A stretch of DNA of 64,000 nt. Source: Micromonosporaceae bacterium. GTDB lineage: Bacteria > Actinomycetota > Actinomycetes > Mycobacteriales > Micromonosporaceae. Shown piece after piece: positions 48,279 through 55,178 of this stretch (positions within the stretch are counted from its first letter, which is position 1; every line of letters starts with the position of its first letter). The notes below the pieces were generated by a model, which worked only from the letters and a program-made list of their open reading frames with translations, made no database searches and was not told the DNA's origin. A program made the translations under genes and the position numbers. The stretch lies in contig DASTMZ010000008.1 of NCBI GenBank assembly GCA_035713725.1, positions 8,280 to 72,279 on the forward strand, in the 5' to 3' direction.

Positions 48279-48947
48279 ATGGTCATCGGCGTGAACGAGT
48301 CGGCCGCTCCGATGCGACCACGCAACCTCGCGGTCACTCATCTGGTCGGCGCCGCCATACCCGGTGTGGTCATCGCCGTCGTCGTCGCCTTCTTCGTACC
48401 GATCGATGTGGCGCTGCTGATCGGCTGGGACGTTGCGGCGGCCGTCTTTCTGGCCGGGACGTGGCTGACCGTGCACGGCCTTGACGGGCCGGCGACCAAG
48501 GTGCACGCGGTTCGCGACGACCCGACCAGGACCGCTTCCGATCTGACCGTGCTGCTCGCGAGCGCCGCGAGTCTCGCGGCGGTGGCGACACTCATCATCC
48601 GGGCCAGCAACGCGCACGGCGCGGGCCGCGTATGGGAGGCGGCGCTCGGTGTCGGCAGCGTCGTGATGGCCTGGCTCGTCGTGCACGCGACCTACATGCT
48701 GCGGTACGCCACGATCTACCACACCGGCGGCGAAGGCGGCGTCGACTTCAACCAGACGAGTCCGCCGCGCTACACCGACTTCGCCTATCTGGCGTTCACG
48801 ATCGGCATGACGTTCCAGGTGTCCGACACGACGCTCACGTCGTCCGAGATGCGCGCAAACGCGCTGCGCCACGCATTGCTGTCCTATCTCTACGGCACGG
48901 TCATCATCGCCGCGACGATCAACCTGATCGCCGGTCTCAATCGCTGA
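48279..48947 (+). CDS. DUF1345-family membrane protein
   Basis: 222 aa. The C-terminal FNQTSPPRYTDFAYLAFTIGMTFQVSDT...LLSYLYGTVIIAATINL is characteristic of DUF1345. Confidence 0.75.
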   Translation: MVIGVNESAAPMRPRNLAVTHLVGAAIPGVVIAVVVAFFVPIDVALLIGWDVAAAVFLAGTWLTVHGLDGPATKVHAVRDDPTRTASDLTVLLASAASLAAVATLIIRASNAHGAGRVWEAALGVGSVVMAWLVVHATYMLRYATIYHTGGEGGVDFNQTSPPRYTDFAYLAFTIGMTFQVSDTTLTSSEMRANALRHALLSYLYGTVIIAATINLIAGLNR

Positions 48948-48956
48948 GGTGCACCG

Positions 48957-49913
48957 ATGACGGAAGGCTCGAGTGGATCGGTTGGCGTGCCGCATGGCGT
49001 GGGTCATGGCGGGGGTCACGGCGTGTACGTACCCGATCTGATCGCCGCCCAGCGCACGATCGGCACTCGCACATTCGACTTCGATCGGCAGGTCGCCGTG
49101 ATGGCGATCGTCAACCGGACGCCGGACTCTTTCCACGACCGCGGCGCATCGTACGCGCTGGATCATGCCGTGTACGCGGTCGGTGCGGCGGTCTCCGACG
49201 GCGCCGATTGGGTGGACATCGGCGGGGTACCGTTCGGGCTCCACGCCGGCGAGGTCAGCGAATCGGAGGAGATCGATCGCGTCGTACCGGTCGTGACCGC
49301 GGCTCGTCAGGCGTCCGATGTCGTGCTGTCGGTGGACACGTACCGCCCGGAGGTCGCGCGTCGGGTGATCTCGGCCGGTGCAGACGTCATCAATGACACG
49401 TCCGGACTTTACGATCCGGGGCTCGCGGACATCGTCGCCGAATCGGGTACGACGCTGGTCATCACGCACAGCTTGGCGCGCCCACCGCGTACCCCCGTAG
49501 TGCGGCCCACCTACCGCGACGTGGTCGCGGAGGTCGCGGCGTTCCTCGCGGACCGCGTGAGCGTGGCGCTCGACCACGGCGTGCGTCCGGAGCAGATCGT
49601 CATCGACCCCGGCCACGACCTGAACAAGAACACCCACCACTCGCTGGAGCTCACGCGCCGGTTGGCCGACATCACATCGCTCGGCTACCCGACGCTAGTG
49701 GCGTTGTCGAACAAGGACTTCATCGGCGAGGCACTCGGCCGACCGCAACACGAGCGCCTCGTCGGCACGATTGCCTCGAACGTCGCCGCGATGTTGCAGG
49801 GTGCCAGGATCGTTCGCGTTCATGACGTTCGAGCCGCGGTCGACTCGGTGCACATGGTGGCGGCGATCCTTGGCTGGCAAGAGCCGGTGGAGGTCCGCCA
49901 CAACGTCGATTAG
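48957..49913 (+). CDS. folP: Dihydropteroate synthase-family protein
   Basis: Pterin-binding domain pattern (VMAIVNRTPDSFHDRG, DWVDIGG, SVDTYRPEVARRVISAGADVINDTSG, IDPGHDLNKN, RVHDV). Whether it is the housekeeping or a folP2-type paralog cannot be told from sequence alone. Confidence 0.8.
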   Translation: MTEGSSGSVGVPHGVGHGGGHGVYVPDLIAAQRTIGTRTFDFDRQVAVMAIVNRTPDSFHDRGASYALDHAVYAVGAAVSDGADWVDIGGVPFGLHAGEVSESEEIDRVVPVVTAARQASDVVLSVDTYRPEVARRVISAGADVINDTSGLYDPGLADIVAESGTTLVITHSLARPPRTPVVRPTYRDVVAEVAAFLADRVSVALDHGVRPEQIVIDPGHDLNKNTHHSLELTRRLADITSLGYPTLVALSNKDFIGEALGRPQHERLVGTIASNVAAMLQGARIVRVHDVRAAVDSVHMVAAILGWQEPVEVRHNVD

Positions 49914-49922
49914 TGGCCGGCG

Positions 49923-50777
49923 TTATCTCGGCCGCTCACTGACGCGGTACCGCAGGAATAGGAAGCCGTCGCTGGCGGCGAGGACGCTCGCGACCTCGAG
50001 ATCGCGCACCGTGCTGACCGGCCCGGCAGTGATGCGACCCGCGCCCGGGCCGAGAAGGCGTGGCGACACGGTCAGGCACAATTCGTCGACCGCGTCCGCG
50101 GCGGTCAGCGCACCGAGCACATGCGGGCCGCCTTCACACAGCACATGTGGGTACCCAGCATCGACGAGCGCGGCGCGCGCGGCGCGGAAGTCGATCGCCT
50201 CGCGCCCGCAGACGACCACCTCGGCAACCTCGCTGAGTGCCTTACGTCGACCGGCCGGAGCGCCGTCATGGGTCAACACGAACGGTCGGACCGGTGCCTC
50301 GCGGAACATCGGGTGCGCTGGGTCGAGATCAAGCCGTCCGGATATCACGACGAGCGCGGGTTGTGGTTCGCGACCACTTCGCCGTCGCAACTCCCGATGA
50401 CGATCGTCGACCGTCATGGCGCCGTACCCCTCGATGCGCAACGTTCCGGCGCCCACCATGACCGCGTCGCACTGCACCCGCAGCAGGTCGAAGATGCGCT
50501 TGTCGGCCGGCCCGCCGAGACCGCCCGACTTTCCGTCGGCGGTGACGGCACCGTCGACGCTCGCGACGAAGTTCGCCCGCATCAACGGTTCGTCACCGAC
50601 CGGGTACGCACGGAGCAACGCGTCGTCGTCGAGCGGCTGGGTGTCCGGACTCGGCCAGACGGCGCGCACCTCCGGTGATGGCTCCGGAGTCGATGGCGCC
50701 GGGGTGGATGGCTCCGTTTCTGGCACGGTTTCGAGCCTCGCACACCCGGGCTCGCGCGGCGTGCCGAACGGCCGCAT
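49923..50777 (-). CDS. RibD C-terminal-domain (pyrimidine/dihydrofolate reductase-like) family protein
   Basis: MRANFVASVDGAVTADGKSGGLGGPADKRIFDLLRVQCDAVMVGAGTLR...LCEGGPHVLGAL. Start is uncertain, but the 13 bp non-triplet repeat at 50821 argues that coding starts at or below 50777. Confidence 0.75.
   Translation of the reverse strand: MRPFGTPREPGCARLETVPETEPSTPAPSTPEPSPEVRAVWPSPDTQPLDDDALLRAYPVGDEPLMRANFVASVDGAVTADGKSGGLGGPADKRIFDLLRVQCDAVMVGAGTLRIEGYGAMTVDDRHRELRRRSGREPQPALVVISGRLDLDPAHPMFREAPVRPFVLTHDGAPAGRRKALSEVAEVVVCGREAIDFRAARAALVDAGYPHVLCEGGPHVLGALTAADAVDELCLTVSPRLLGPGAGRITAGPVSTVRDLEVASVLAASDGFLFLRYRVSERPR
50674..50718 (-). repeat. 15 bp tandem repeat x3 in the reductase 5' tail (EPSTP APSTP EPSPE)
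   Basis: ggtgatggctccgga gtcgatggcgccggg gtggatggctccgtt on the plus strand. Confidence 0.8.
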
Positions 50778-50820
50778 CCGCGGGTGCTTCGGCGCGCGTC
50801 GAGTGCGTTGGTCGTGCGGA

Positions 50821-50859
50821 TCGATGGTTCGGATCGATGGTTCGGATCGAGGGTGCGGC
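50821..50859. repeat. 13 bp tandem repeat x3
   Basis: tcgatggttcgga tcgatggttcgga tcgagggtgcggc. Confidence 0.85.
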
Positions 50860-50964
50860 GGTGTAGAGCTGAGGTTGTCGGGGGATGGCGATAGCGTCAC
50901 GACGTTGGTGCGGGCGGCCGTATTCGTCACGGGGCTGTGTCTCGGGATGGGCCGCAGCGTGCTA

Positions 50965-51080
50965 TGAACCATGGCTTTTGTTGAACCACAGCTTGCTATG
51001 AACTACGGCTTGCGTTTGAACCACGGCTTGCGTTTGAACCACAGCTTGCTTTTGAACCACGGCTTGCGTTGAACCACAAC
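50965..51080. repeat. 17-18 bp tandem repeat x7 (TGAACCACRGCTTGCKTT), relatively AT-rich, in the divergent intergenic region
   Basis: TGAACC/TGAACT recurs at 50965, 50982, 50999, 51017, 51035, 51053 and 51070. The array ends 44 bp before the DUF885 ATG. Confidence 0.92.
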
Positions 51081-51123
51081 ACGTGGGCACCAGAGCCCGC
51101 GGACGAACAGATCGGCAACAGGG

Positions 51124-52842
51124 ATGGGGAGTGGCATGAGTGCGGTGAACGACCTCGCGGACGAGATGCTCGATGCAATATTCGACGCATACCCAGCGAT
51201 CGCCACGCTGTTGGGATTCGCCGGACCGCGCGATCGACTCCTCACTGACCATCGCGAGTCCGCCGAGCAAGCTATGGATGCGCGGGTCGCGGCAATCGGC
51301 GCCCGCGCGGCCGCGCTCGATCCGGCCGACCTGATGCCCGACGAGCGGGTCACCCGTGCCGTCGTCATGCGACAGTCCGACGACCTGCGGGCCGGTTGGC
51401 AAGGCCATCTGACCGAGTTCTCCATCTGCGACTCGTTCACCGCGCCCGCGGCGGACATCTTGTTCACGCTGCCGATGATCACGATCTCCACGGCCGAGCA
51501 GGCCGATGCGTATGTCGACCGGCTCGCGGCCATTCCGCGCACGCTCGAGGCGCTGGCCGACCGGCATCGGGCGGGCATCGCGGCCGGCCGCGTTCCGGTG
51601 CGGCATCTCGTCGAGGCGGCCGCCGATCACGTCGACCGCTATCTGGCCAACCGCGACGACCCGCTGGCCAAACCGACGCCCGCCGATCATGCCGGAGTGA
51701 CCGGCGGTCCTATGGACGTTCCTGCGTTCCACGCACGCCGTGACGAGGTGCTGCGTACGGCGGTCCGACCGGCGTTCGCGGCCTACCGCGACGTGCTCCG
51801 CAATGAAGTCGCACCGCACGGTCGCGATCGGGAGCATCCCGGGCTGACGTGGCTGCCGGGCGGCGACGAGATCTACGCGCGGATGATCGCGATGCACACC
51901 ACGACCGGGCGCACCGCGGACGAGATCCACCAGACCGGTCTCGACGTGATCGCCCGGCTCGCGGACGAATATCGCGAGGTCGGCGGCCGCGTGTTCGGCA
52001 CGACCGATCTCGCCGAGATCTTCGAACGGTTGCGGACGGATCCGGCGCTGCGGTGGCGCGACGGCGATGAGTTGCTCGAGGCGGCGCGGGCCGCGGTCGC
52101 CCGTGCCGATGCGGCCGCGCCCGCGTGGTTCGGCCGGCTGCCAAGCCAGGGGTGCGAAGTGCGCGCCGTTCCCGACGACGAGGCGCCCGGCGCCGCGGGT
52201 GCGTATTACACCCAGCCGGCCATGGACGGCAGCCGGCCGGGCATCTACTTCGCCAACACGTACGAAGCGACGGAACGCGACCGGACGCAGTGCGAGTCGA
52301 CCGCGTTCCACGAGGCGATCCCGGGTCACCACTTCCAGACCACGATTGCGATGGAGCTGGCCGACCTGCCGATGTTGCGTCGGCTCGCGCCGTTCACGGC
52401 GTACGGCGAGGGGTGGGGCCTCTACTGCGAGCGGCTGGCGCACGAGATGGGGCTCTACTCGGACGACATCGCGTTGCTCGGGATGCTCAGCACCGACTCG
52501 CTGCGGGCGGCGCGTCTCGTGGTTGATACCGGCATGCATGCGAAGGGTTGGAGTCGCGAGCAAGCGGTGCGTTACATGATGGAGCAGACGCCAGTCATGC
52601 CGCTGGAGATCGAGAGTGAGATCGACCGGTACATCGCCACGCCCGGCCAGGCATTGGCGTACATGATCGGTCGACTGGAGATCCAGCGGATCCGTGCCGA
52701 GGCGGAGCGCGCACTCGGGTCGGCGTTCGACATCCGCGGCTTCCACGACACCGTGCTAGGCAGCGGCGCGTTGCCACTGAGCGTGCTCGCCGAGGTCGTC
52801 GACGCGTGGGTGGCACTACGCACCGCAGAGCCATCCGTGTAA
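51124..52842 (+). CDS. DUF885-family protein (putative metallopeptidase-like)
   Basis: 572 aa. The C-terminal region with [11 protein letters not shown] (HExxH-like context), [12 protein letters not shown] and [16 protein letters not shown] is typical of DUF885. An alternative ATG is at 51136. Confidence 0.8.
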
Positions 52843-52893
52843 CTAGTCCGTGTAACTAGGTCCGCGTCACCAGGTCCGCGTCAGTAGGTCCGC
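52837..52893. repeat. 13-14 bp tandem repeat x4 that begins on the DUF885 stop codon
   Basis: gtgTAActagtcc gtgTAActaggtccgc gtcaccaggtccgc gtcagtaggtccgc. The stop TAA at 52840-52842 is duplicated in unit 2. Confidence 0.88.
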
Positions 52894-52921
52894 GCATCGG
52901 AGCGCAACATCGGCGTCGCGC

Positions 52922-52952
52922 AACCTTGGCGTCTCGAAACCTTGGCGTCTCG
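52922..52952. repeat. 16 bp tandem duplication
   Basis: aaccttggcgtctcg a aaccttggcgtctcg. Confidence 0.88.
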
Positions 52953-53006
52953 ACACGCGGTGCCGACCGCGTCTCTACGCGGCCCGTCAACGCGTCGACA
53001 GGGCGT

Positions 53007-53093
53007 AGCGACCCGATACCGTGCAGCGACCCGATACCGTGCAGCGTCCCGATGCGGCGCATCGTCCCGATACCCCATCCCCGATACCCCATC
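53007..53093. repeat. Composite array of 5 units with a CCCGATRC core (period 18, 18, 18, 14)
   Basis: agcgacccgataccgtgc x2, agcgtcccgatgcggcgc, atcgtcccgataccccat, ccccgataccccatc. Confidence 0.88.
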
Positions 53094-53438
53094 GACGCGT
53101 CTCCACACGGCACTGTCAAGGCGTTCACACAGCGTCGACAGCCACTCGACACGGCAGTGTCACATGGTCCGAGACGGCGCTCGGCAGCGCCCTGATGCGA
53201 CGACGGACAATGGCTCGGCCCGAGCTCTCCGGACGTCAGATACGCGGCGTAGTCCCAAGTAGACGGGCTGCGGTCGTCGTTACCGAGCCGTAATGGCGGC
53301 CTTGTTGATCTGTACCTTGTATACAGGATACGTTCGGGTTCCGGAACGGACCGGGAGGACCCGATGCCGCGTAAATTCCCAACCCCTCGACTCGATAACC
53401 CCCAACTCCATTTGCTTGAGCCGGGTCAGGGCACCCGG

Positions 53439-55070
53439 ATGACCCGAGGCGGGACCTTTAGAAGCCGGGCGATCAGAAGCATTGTCGTTCTCGCGACCCT
53501 TACCCTCGCGATGGCCGGATGCAGCTCCATTTCCTCGGGGTCAGGCAACTCCTCGTCCAACAACAACAAGGCAGCCAAGGCGGGCGGCACGCTCACCGTC
53601 GCGCTTGCGGGCGAGCCGGACGCGCTCGACCCGACCACCGGCCGTACGCTGGTCGGCCGCAGCGTCTTTACGTCTATTTGCGAGAAGCTCTACGACGTCG
53701 ACAGCAAGCTCGCGGTCGTGCCGCAGCTCGCGGCATCGTTGCCACAGTTCTCTTCGGACGGACTGACCGTCACGATCAAGCTGCGCTCCGGCGTCAAGTT
53801 CGCCGACGGCACGCCGATGGATGCCACCGCGGTCAAGACGAGCCTCGACCGTGATATGACATTGCCCGGCTCCGCGCGCCAGAGCGAACTCACCAGCATC
53901 GACAATGTGTCGGTGGCCGACCCGACCACCGTGACCATCAAGCTCAAGCAGCCGTTCACGCCGTTGACCGCGATCCTGGCCGACCGCGCCGGCATGGTGA
54001 TGTCGCCGACCGCGCTGCAGTCCGAGGGCGCGAACTTTGGCGAGCACCCGGTCTGCGTCGGCCCGTTCAAGTTCTCCACTCGCGTCGCGCAGGACCGCAT
54101 TGAGGTCGTCAAGGACCCGAACTACTACGACGCCAGCAAGGTCCTGCTGGACAAGATCGTTTACAAGATCATTGCCGACCCGGAGACCCGGTTCAACAAC
54201 TTGCAGTCCGGTGACGTCCAGGTGCTCGACACCGTGGCGGCCACCGATGTCGACGCGTTGAAAGCGGACTCGAAGCTCGAGTTGCTGAGCTCCGACTCGC
54301 TCGGCTATCAGGGCATCACGATCAACATCGGAAATGTCGACGGCGTCGGCAAGCCCGGTCGGGCGCTGCCAGCGAAGTTGGCCAGCCCGATGTCGGCGAA
54401 CGCTCAGGTGCGCCAGGCGTTCGAGCTGAGCCTCGACCGCGACGCGATCAACAAGGTCGTGTTCCGCGGTGAGTTCAGCCCGGCTTGTGGACCGATCAGC
54501 CCGGCGAGCCCATTCTCCACTCCGGAAGCTCAGGTGTGCCCGAAGCACGACCCGACCGCGGCGAAGGCGCTGTTGGCCTCGGCCGGCGTTTCGACGCCGG
54601 TGAAGGTCAGCATGATCATTGGCAACACGCCGGATGCGGAGCGATTGGGCCAGGCGATTCAGGCACAGGTGAAGGACGGCGGCTTCGACCTTCAGCTGGT
54701 GCCGGTCGAGTTCGCGGCATCGTTGGACCAGACCGACGCCGGTCAGTACCAGCTGTTCCAGATCGGTTGGTCGGGCCGCGTCGACCCGGACGGCAACATT
54801 GCGAACTTCGTCAGCACGCTCGGCTCGCAGAACAACGACGGCTACACCAACCCGTCCGTTGACACGCTGCTCGAGCAGGCGCGGTCGCAAGCCGATGTGG
54901 CCGCGCGCGCGAAGATCTACGGCCAGGTGATCACTCAGCTGCACCAGGACGTACCGATCATCTACCTGTACCGGCAGAAGAACTTCACCGGTGTTTCCCG
55001 CACGGTCGTGGGGGTTCAGGTGTTCGGCGACGGCCTGCTCCGATTCAAGACCGCGGGCTTCGCGGCCTGA
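53439..55070 (+). CDS. Peptide/nickel-type ABC transporter substrate-binding lipoprotein (family 5, DppA/OppA/GsiB-like)
   Basis: Signal peptide with lipobox AMAGC and family-5 SBP pattern (GGTLTVALAGEPDALDP..., LVPQLA, DPNYYD, GWSGRVDPDGN). The ORF-track start is 53364. Confidence 0.88.
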   Translation: MTRGGTFRSRAIRSIVVLATLTLAMAGCSSISSGSGNSSSNNNKAAKAGGTLTVALAGEPDALDPTTGRTLVGRSVFTSICEKLYDVDSKLAVVPQLAASLPQFSSDGLTVTIKLRSGVKFADGTPMDATAVKTSLDRDMTLPGSARQSELTSIDNVSVADPTTVTIKLKQPFTPLTAILADRAGMVMSPTALQSEGANFGEHPVCVGPFKFSTRVAQDRIEVVKDPNYYDASKVLLDKIVYKIIADPETRFNNLQSGDVQVLDTVAATDVDALKADSKLELLSSDSLGYQGITINIGNVDGVGKPGRALPAKLASPMSANAQVRQAFELSLDRDAINKVVFRGEFSPACGPISPASPFSTPEAQVCPKHDPTAAKALLASAGVSTPVKVSMIIGNTPDAERLGQAIQAQVKDGGFDLQLVPVEFAASLDQTDAGQYQLFQIGWSGRVDPDGNIANFVSTLGSQNNDGYTNPSVDTLLEQARSQADVAARAKIYGQVITQLHQDVPIIYLYRQKNFTGVSRTVVGVQVFGDGLLRFKTAGFAA

Positions 55071-55116: not shown

Positions 55117-55178
55117 ATCGGTTAGCTGGCAGATCGGTTAGCTGGCAGATCGGTCGCTGGCAGATCGGTCGCTGATAG
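55117..55178. repeat. 15-16 bp tandem repeat x4 between the binding-protein and permease genes
   Basis: atcggttagctggcag x2, atcggtcgctggcag, atcggtcgctgatag. It immediately follows the hairpin. Confidence 0.92.

Follow-up and report, generated by a model that had tools for sequence, protein, structure and literature searches.

Bacterial minisatellites (VNTRs), among them the intergenic arrays of Burkholderia pseudomallei (PMC1853098) and the prokaryotic 'satellites' (PMC6749651), consist of head-to-tail units of 10-100 bp that lie mostly between genes, vary in copy number among close relatives with conserved flanks, have periods divisible by three when they lie within genes, and for the most part have no assigned function. 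The B. pseudomallei arrays are mostly built from 6-9-bp motifs, and 36% are duplicated elsewhere (PMC1853098). A 2019 survey reported fewer than 4 satellites per Mb in most prokaryotes and 13-23 per Mb in Burkholderia mallei and B. pseudomallei (PMC6749651). Plasmid and secondary-replicon iterons are direct repeats of ~17-22 bp in non-coding DNA with a GC content below that of their surroundings, and the simple-sequence contingency loci of phase variation are slippage-prone 1-8-bp repeats near gene starts, which can alter promoter spacing. The closest functional analogue of the locus described here is found in another actinobacterium: tandem repeats just upstream of Mycobacterium tuberculosis genes, in the promoters of dop, lpdA and cysG, vary in copy number between strains (PMC12817950). 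Their variation, at 10^-2 to 10^-3 per chromosome, is proposed to change promoter strength; the dop unit is 57 bp long, each unit carrying a whole promoter with a mapped transcription start site (TSS) (PMC12817950).

We analysed a 64-kb window (the whole stretch of 64,000 nucleotides) from a Micromonosporaceae metagenome-assembled genome (MAG; genome G000, 5.0 Mb in 237 contigs, 68.5% GC). The window contains a divergent spacer, which is preceded by genes for cytochrome bd subunit II, a DUF1345 protein, a pterin-binding folP-like protein and a RibD_C protein, and is followed by a DUF885 gene and a family-5 peptide ABC transporter (Pfam). Its features, and those of the two adjoining genes, are as follows.

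49923-50777, minus strand: RibD_C-domain (pyrimidine-reductase-like) gene (Pfam), the domain beginning near 50582.
50677-50716, minus strand: 15-bp array, 2.7 copies of GATGGCTCCGGAGTC (TRF), absent from the list of the sequence-only reading.
50817-50858, no strand: 13-bp array, 3.2 copies of CGGATCGATGGTT (TRF and allele comparison).
50871-50903, plus strand: inter-array block GAGGTTGTCGGGGGRTGGCGATAGCGTCACGAC, identical in four of four alleles except for one A/G position.
50948-50964, no strand: degenerate leading (eighth) unit TGGGCCGCAGCGTGCTA, matching unit 2 at 13 of 17 positions (reading of the sequence).
50965-51087, no strand: 17/18-bp array (the main array), six full units and a partial seventh, consensus TGAACCACGGCTTGCGTT.
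51124-52842, plus strand: DUF885 gene (longest ORF from 51124; Pfam).

The main array had been noticed earlier in a sequence-only reading as a seven-copy array of 17-18-bp units, and both direct reading and TRF locate it, as six full units followed by a partial one. TRF reports 50965-51077 with a period of 18, 6.4 copies, 82% matches and a score of 149. The full inventory of the unit TGAACCACRGCTTGC(K)T(T) comprises six complete copies, one partial copy and one degenerate edge copy. TGAAC starts are found at 50965, 50982, 50999, 51017, 51035, 51053 and 51070, at distances of 17, 17, 18, 18, 18 and 17 bp. The partial seventh unit reads TGAACCACA and has diverged afterwards, and the degenerate unit in front of the array is a decayed array edge. 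Two linked subtypes are present, CACAGCTTGCT- in units 2 and 5 and CACGGCTTGCGT- in units 3, 4 and 6, and this alternation suggests that the array has grown in part by two-unit steps of ~35 bp. With up to two mismatches, the 15-nt core of the unit occurs 5 times in the window, compared with 0.21 expected from shuffles. The array has a GC content of 49.6%, whereas the genome as a whole has 68.5% and its non-coding DNA 67%. The low GC content pointed out in the sequence-only reading is thus real, and its description as AT-rich holds relative to the genome but not in absolute terms. The TTGAAC hexamer that had been ascribed to every unit is present at five of the seven unit junctions, the other two reading ATGAAC. 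A distance of 36-48 bp separates the end of the array from the downstream DUF885 start. The mixture of 17- and 18-bp units leaves no consistent reading frame, in agreement with the non-coding character previously assigned to this stretch. We thus discarded a peptide-coding repeat, as the 17/18-bp mixture disrupts all frames and the sequence is not conserved. The array does create a 33-codon upstream ORF, MAFVEPQLAMNYGLRLNHGLRLNHSLLLNHGLR (50970-51071, plus strand), which stops in the last unit; as the relatives do not conserve it, this ORF is probably a chance product of the repeat.

Comparison of four alleles of the spacer revealed that the genes are stable and the repeats are not. The alleles are those of the window, of the sister genome G011 (locus L001, 95.0% nucleotide identity over 98 kb), and of two loci found by scanning metagenomes with the conserved start of DUF885 (L080 and L081); identity is ~95% where measured. 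In the sister genome the same RibD_C-DUF885 spacer is present with conserved flanks, and every array is different. Copy numbers in the four alleles are as follows.

17/18-bp array: 6.4 in G000, 2.2 in L001 (unit CCACAGCTTGATATGCA), 2.2 in L080, absent in L081.
16-bp array of GCACCACAGGGCTCGG: single copy in G000, 3.1 in L001, 3.1 in L080, no array in L081.
13-bp array: 3.2 in G000, 2.5 in L001, about 2.2-2.5 in L080, about 2.5 in L081.
15-bp array: 2.7 in G000, 5.5 in L001, 8.3 in L080; the L081 contig begins past it.

L080 resembles L001 apart from its 8.3 copies of the 15-bp unit, and the tail of the 17/18-bp unit in these two repeat-bearing relatives (CCACAGCTTGATATGCA) differs from that in the window. 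In L081, GGAATCGTCACGGGCTG runs straight into CAGCAGAGCGCTCGGG with no 17/18-bp array in between, and the DUF885 frame is intact. The main array has thus turned over in both copy number and sequence, and one allele lacks it altogether. No TANNNT hexamer is present in the spacer outside the block at 50871-50903, which has one (TAGCGT, 50892-50897), and we regard this block from its sequence as a candidate for the true promoter or control region. In more distant members of the genus (G003 at locus L004, G009, and locus L002), the folP and RibD_C genes are missing and DUF885 comes directly after DUF1345, which indicates that the divergent spacer is itself recent. The folP-like and RibD_C genes are specific to the lineage of G000 and G011 (window 48279-50777 compared with L002, L004 and L005). 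An apparent homology to TGAACCACGG past the DUF1345 stop of G003 (L004) was rejected as a coincidence, because it arose when 8 bp at the end of the gene were duplicated, and is absent from G009 and L002.

The main array belongs to a large population of similar arrays. After merging of the 1,589 rows that TRF returned, the genome contains 1,287 arrays (0.26 per kb), 43 of them in the 64-kb window (0.67 per kb). The same program returned 174 rows for a Markov-3 shuffle of the genome and 1 for a 50-kb sample of Escherichia coli. We placed the arrays relative to genes with our own crude codon-usage gene caller (4,466 genes, 88% coding).

Inside genes: 784 arrays, 0.18 per kb, 91% of periods multiples of three.
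Intergenic: 374 arrays, 0.82 per kb (boundary arrays included), 43% of periods multiples of three.
At gene boundaries: 129 arrays, density pooled with the intergenic arrays.

Selection acts as a sieve on these arrays: genic periods are almost confined to multiples of three (91%), whereas intergenic periods spread smoothly over 12-24 bp with a mode at 15-18, so that a period of 17-18 bp is typical. An all-against-all comparison of the 1,287 units placed only 79 arrays in 26 families; 94% of units are therefore private, and that of the main array is among them, so that this array does not belong to a dispersed repeat family. The size mode of 15-18 bp and the private units set this genome apart from B. 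pseudomallei. Among the 374 intergenic arrays, the main array is one of the 20 longest and one of the 12 with the most copies, and its GC content is among the lowest ~5%. It is thus an extreme member of its class in length, copies and AT content and otherwise typical. Of 36 arrays with orthologous flanks, 20 differ in length between the genome and its sister at 95.0% identity. Convergent spacers carry 1.54 arrays per kb, co-directional spacers 0.87 and divergent spacers 0.53; arrays are hence rarest where promoters lie, the opposite of what a promoter-linked function predicts. Sampled relatives have 0.05-0.5 arrays per kb, which makes array richness a clade trait. By our approximate version of the SATFIND rule, which requires at least 4 exact, regularly spaced decamer repeats, this genome has about 15 satellites per Mb.

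One family is truly dispersed. It comprises 19 arrays with a ~30-nt core, GCGCCTGGACCTGCGGTCGGCGCACCGTCCC, in units mostly of 40-70 bp and in a few cases of 15-25 bp, at sites including C196:46706-46886, C209:99554-99700, C215:3136-3282 and C217:25638-25822. Unlike the private arrays, it may be a REP/MIRU-like element.

We conclude that the main array is very probably a non-coding, hypervariable minisatellite (VNTR) in a young and weakly constrained spacer. Its units are arranged head to tail and fall in the 10-100-bp range, and its copy number varies (6.4, 2.2, 2.2 and 0) between conserved flanks. Such an array would have started with the tandem duplication of a local 17-18-bp piece of relatively AT-rich spacer, and would then have expanded, contracted and been partially homogenized by slipped-strand mispairing or unequal exchange, including steps of two units (~35 bp). 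It may persist because the spacer is weakly constrained, and its presence would be neutral. The array would have no sequence-specific job; at most, its length may alter the spacing between the block at 50871-50903 and the DUF885 ribosome-binding site (RBS). A lineage-specific effect on DUF885 expression, to which we give a low probability, would be a by-product. The missing conservation argues against an old function of the array, not against a recent one. The arrays could also be of use as strain markers in metagenomes.

A more specific proposal for the origin of the main array, which we consider tentative and rather unlikely, is that it was produced by a distinct, length-biased process of tandem duplication operating across this GC-rich actinobacterial group. 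It derives from the size spectrum of perfect tandem duplications, which are therefore young. Compared with a Markov-3 shuffle of the whole genome, which contains none of at least 12 nt, they do not exceed chance up to 11 nt and then form a peak at 14-16 nt in non-coding DNA and at 12-19 nt overall. The counts by unit length are as follows.

Non-coding DNA: 9 at 11 nt, 10 at 12, 12 at 13, 20 at 14, 32 at 15, 20 at 16, 13 at 17, 15 at 18, 9 at 19 and 3 at 20.
Genes: 28 at 12 nt, 88 at 15, 24 at 18 and 9 at 21.

As the ~15-nt peak is present in non-coding DNA, it is more than a codon effect. G006 and G011 have it too, and G022, from another family of the order, shows it faintly. On this proposal, the counts show a single peak in place of a decay with length because a soft molecular ruler, and not plain polymerase slippage, would set the unit size. 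Such a ruler could arise, for example, when Ku/LigD fills in and joins staggered breaks, or when unprocessed Okazaki flaps are ligated. A microhomology test of slippage against end-joining found that the partial third copies at young duplications are spread broadly over 0-12 nt. If the proposal is true, the density range of 0.05-0.5 arrays per kb reflects heritable differences in that pathway. We found no description of a ~15-nt peak, or of tandem repeats in Micromonosporaceae, in the literature. The size peak of new tandem duplications is more interesting than the locus itself. Together, the ~1,300 mostly private arrays, the peak, the genic sieve and the depletion from promoter-bearing spacers offer a way to quantify a little-studied mutational process of uncultured soil Micromonosporaceae.

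The repeat might alternatively tune expression, its copy number setting the transcription or translation of DUF885, and possibly of the RibD_C gene, from within the promoter or the 5' leader. We regard this as improbable. It would fit the short distance between the array and the DUF885 start, the relatively AT-rich sequence with its TTGAAC and TTGC(G/T)T hexamers, and the natural alleles with 0, 2.2 and 6.4 copies. The spacer's sole TANNNT hexamer lies upstream (50892), and the array may thus be transcribed as part of a leader. A precedent is provided by the M. tuberculosis promoter repeats, whose variation is proposed to change promoter strength (PMC12817950). In that system each dop unit carries a promoter of its own with a mapped TSS, whereas the 17-18-bp unit of the main array is too short for a promoter and has no -10-like element. 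The sequence-only reading had described phased -35-like sites, a view that is not supported: the array contains no -10-like TANNNT on either strand, and no sigma-70-type pair is formed within or across units. No promoter-like pair emerged from a sigma-70-type scan of 50500-51300, and the sole terminator-like hairpin in this interval, at the edge of the array, was weak and no more than chance would give. A leader transcribed from the array would have no special structure: the RNA fold of 50940-51130 has a z-score of +1.36, less structured than shuffles, and nothing in 50000-53500 matched Rfam (E-value mode). Arrays of this class are in addition depleted in promoter-bearing spacers and densest in convergent gaps, and private-unit arrays occur at every type of gene boundary. 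Contingency loci likewise offer only a partial parallel: the unit of the main array is much longer than theirs, there is no on/off frame logic, and the array class is genome-wide with no preference for gene types or promoters. In repeat-rich actinobacterial genomes, a neat array beside a start codon is therefore no evidence of regulation. The alleles with 0, ~2 and ~6 units nevertheless form a natural series at one promoter-proximal site and would allow a clean test of an effect on expression.

Far less probable still is the iteron-like or multi-operator arrangement favored by the sequence-only reading, in which the units are sites for a replication initiator, a partition protein, DnaA or a transcription factor. 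Directly repeated units of 17-18 bp do match iterons in size and arrangement, and every unit contains a CCACA/CCACG core with a faint likeness to a DnaA box. The genes adjoining the array are, by Pfam, housekeeping genes, with no rep, par, origin or regulator gene among them, and the array thus differs from iterons in having neither an adjacent initiator nor origin features. The unit is also not conserved: at this chromosomal site the relatives have other versions of it, and one allele lacks it. The genome-wide search suggested along with the operator idea returned, for the 15-nt core with up to one mismatch, five matches in the 5.0-Mb genome, all five inside the array. In 11 other genomes of the genus there were 0-2 scattered matches, the same as for a reversed-pattern control. 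The unit is hence unique in the genome and the genus, does not recur in a regulon and is not conserved at the orthologous promoter. A regulon motif was rejected on the same searches, which gave nothing above the control.

The spacing of the units argues in the same direction. Known direct-repeat binders use a fixed spacing of 11 or 22 bp, and operators of the PhoP/GlnR type require 11 bp. Steps of 17-18 bp rotate successive sites by ~223-257 degrees, and the seven units come to lie at 0, 223, 86, 343, 240, 137 and 0 degrees. The array is thus not on one helix face, and its 17-18-bp spacing is neither 11 nor 22 bp. PhoP/GlnR-type operators, whose GTTCA/GAAC-like cores resemble the array, were discarded because the 11-bp spacing is not present. 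A DnaA-box cluster (datA/DBC-like) was likewise excluded, as the array contains 0 matches to TTGTCCACA at up to two mismatches. The likely chromosomal origin of the genome is the dnaA-dnaN spacer on contig C120 (C120:29469-29944). It uses nnnTCCACA boxes, TTGTCCACA-like, with 9 matches at up to two mismatches in 476 bp.

The least credible explanation is an assembly artefact, in which the array itself or its number of copies came from the assembler: this MAG consists of 237 contigs and assemblers can mis-set tandem copy numbers, but the array is 113-140 bp long with distinguishable units, homologous arrays occupy the same site in three independent assemblies, and the same array class is found in relatives with long contigs.

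The neighboring arrays bear on where the RibD_C gene begins. The 13-bp array had been reported as three copies, and TRF finds it at 50817-50858 with 3.2 copies and 93% matches. As had been proposed, it limits the start of the reductase gene: its length differs between alleles by 17 or 13 nt, which are not multiples of three and disrupt any frame, so that the array is non-coding and the RibD_C start must lie below 50817. From the sequence, the start codon would be either the ATG at 50777, which is common to all four alleles, or the GTG at 50669. The 349-aa RibD_C ORF that extends to 50972 is an extension without conservation, and it illustrates how long ORFs running into arrays mis-set gene starts. 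The non-coding assignment and the limit on the reductase start in the sequence-only reading thus stand, and its iteron or operator interpretation does not.

The 15-bp array at 50677-50716 is in frame with the RibD_C ORF, where it would encode a stretch rich in Pro, Thr, Glu and Ser. Its length differences between alleles are all multiples of three, and it may therefore encode a variable Pro/Thr/Glu/Ser-rich N-terminal stretch. The array is either a variable N-terminal linker or lies immediately 5' of a GTG start at 50669. On the other side of the spacer, DUF885 has in-frame ATGs at 51124 and 51136. A good RBS, GGGGAG (51126-51131), precedes the second only, and the annotated start may therefore be four codons early, 51136 being the likelier start.

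Further arrays are found in and around the same genes. In the sister genome, DUF885 contains a 15-bp array of 3.7 copies (L001 3580-3640, corresponding to ~51700 in the window) that adds 45 nt in frame and is absent from the window, and a 21-bp array near it shows a 45-nt difference as well. The last 8 nt of DUF1345 including its stop (GCTGAACC) are present in two to three tandem copies at L004 2878-2893 and at about 2880-2900 in L005, which is another case of duplication across a gene end. The spacers past DUF885 (52834-53093) and past the peptide-binding-protein gene (55117-55174) consist mostly of unrelated arrays with 14-, 16- and 18-bp units, and the array in 52834-53093 begins on the DUF885 stop codon.
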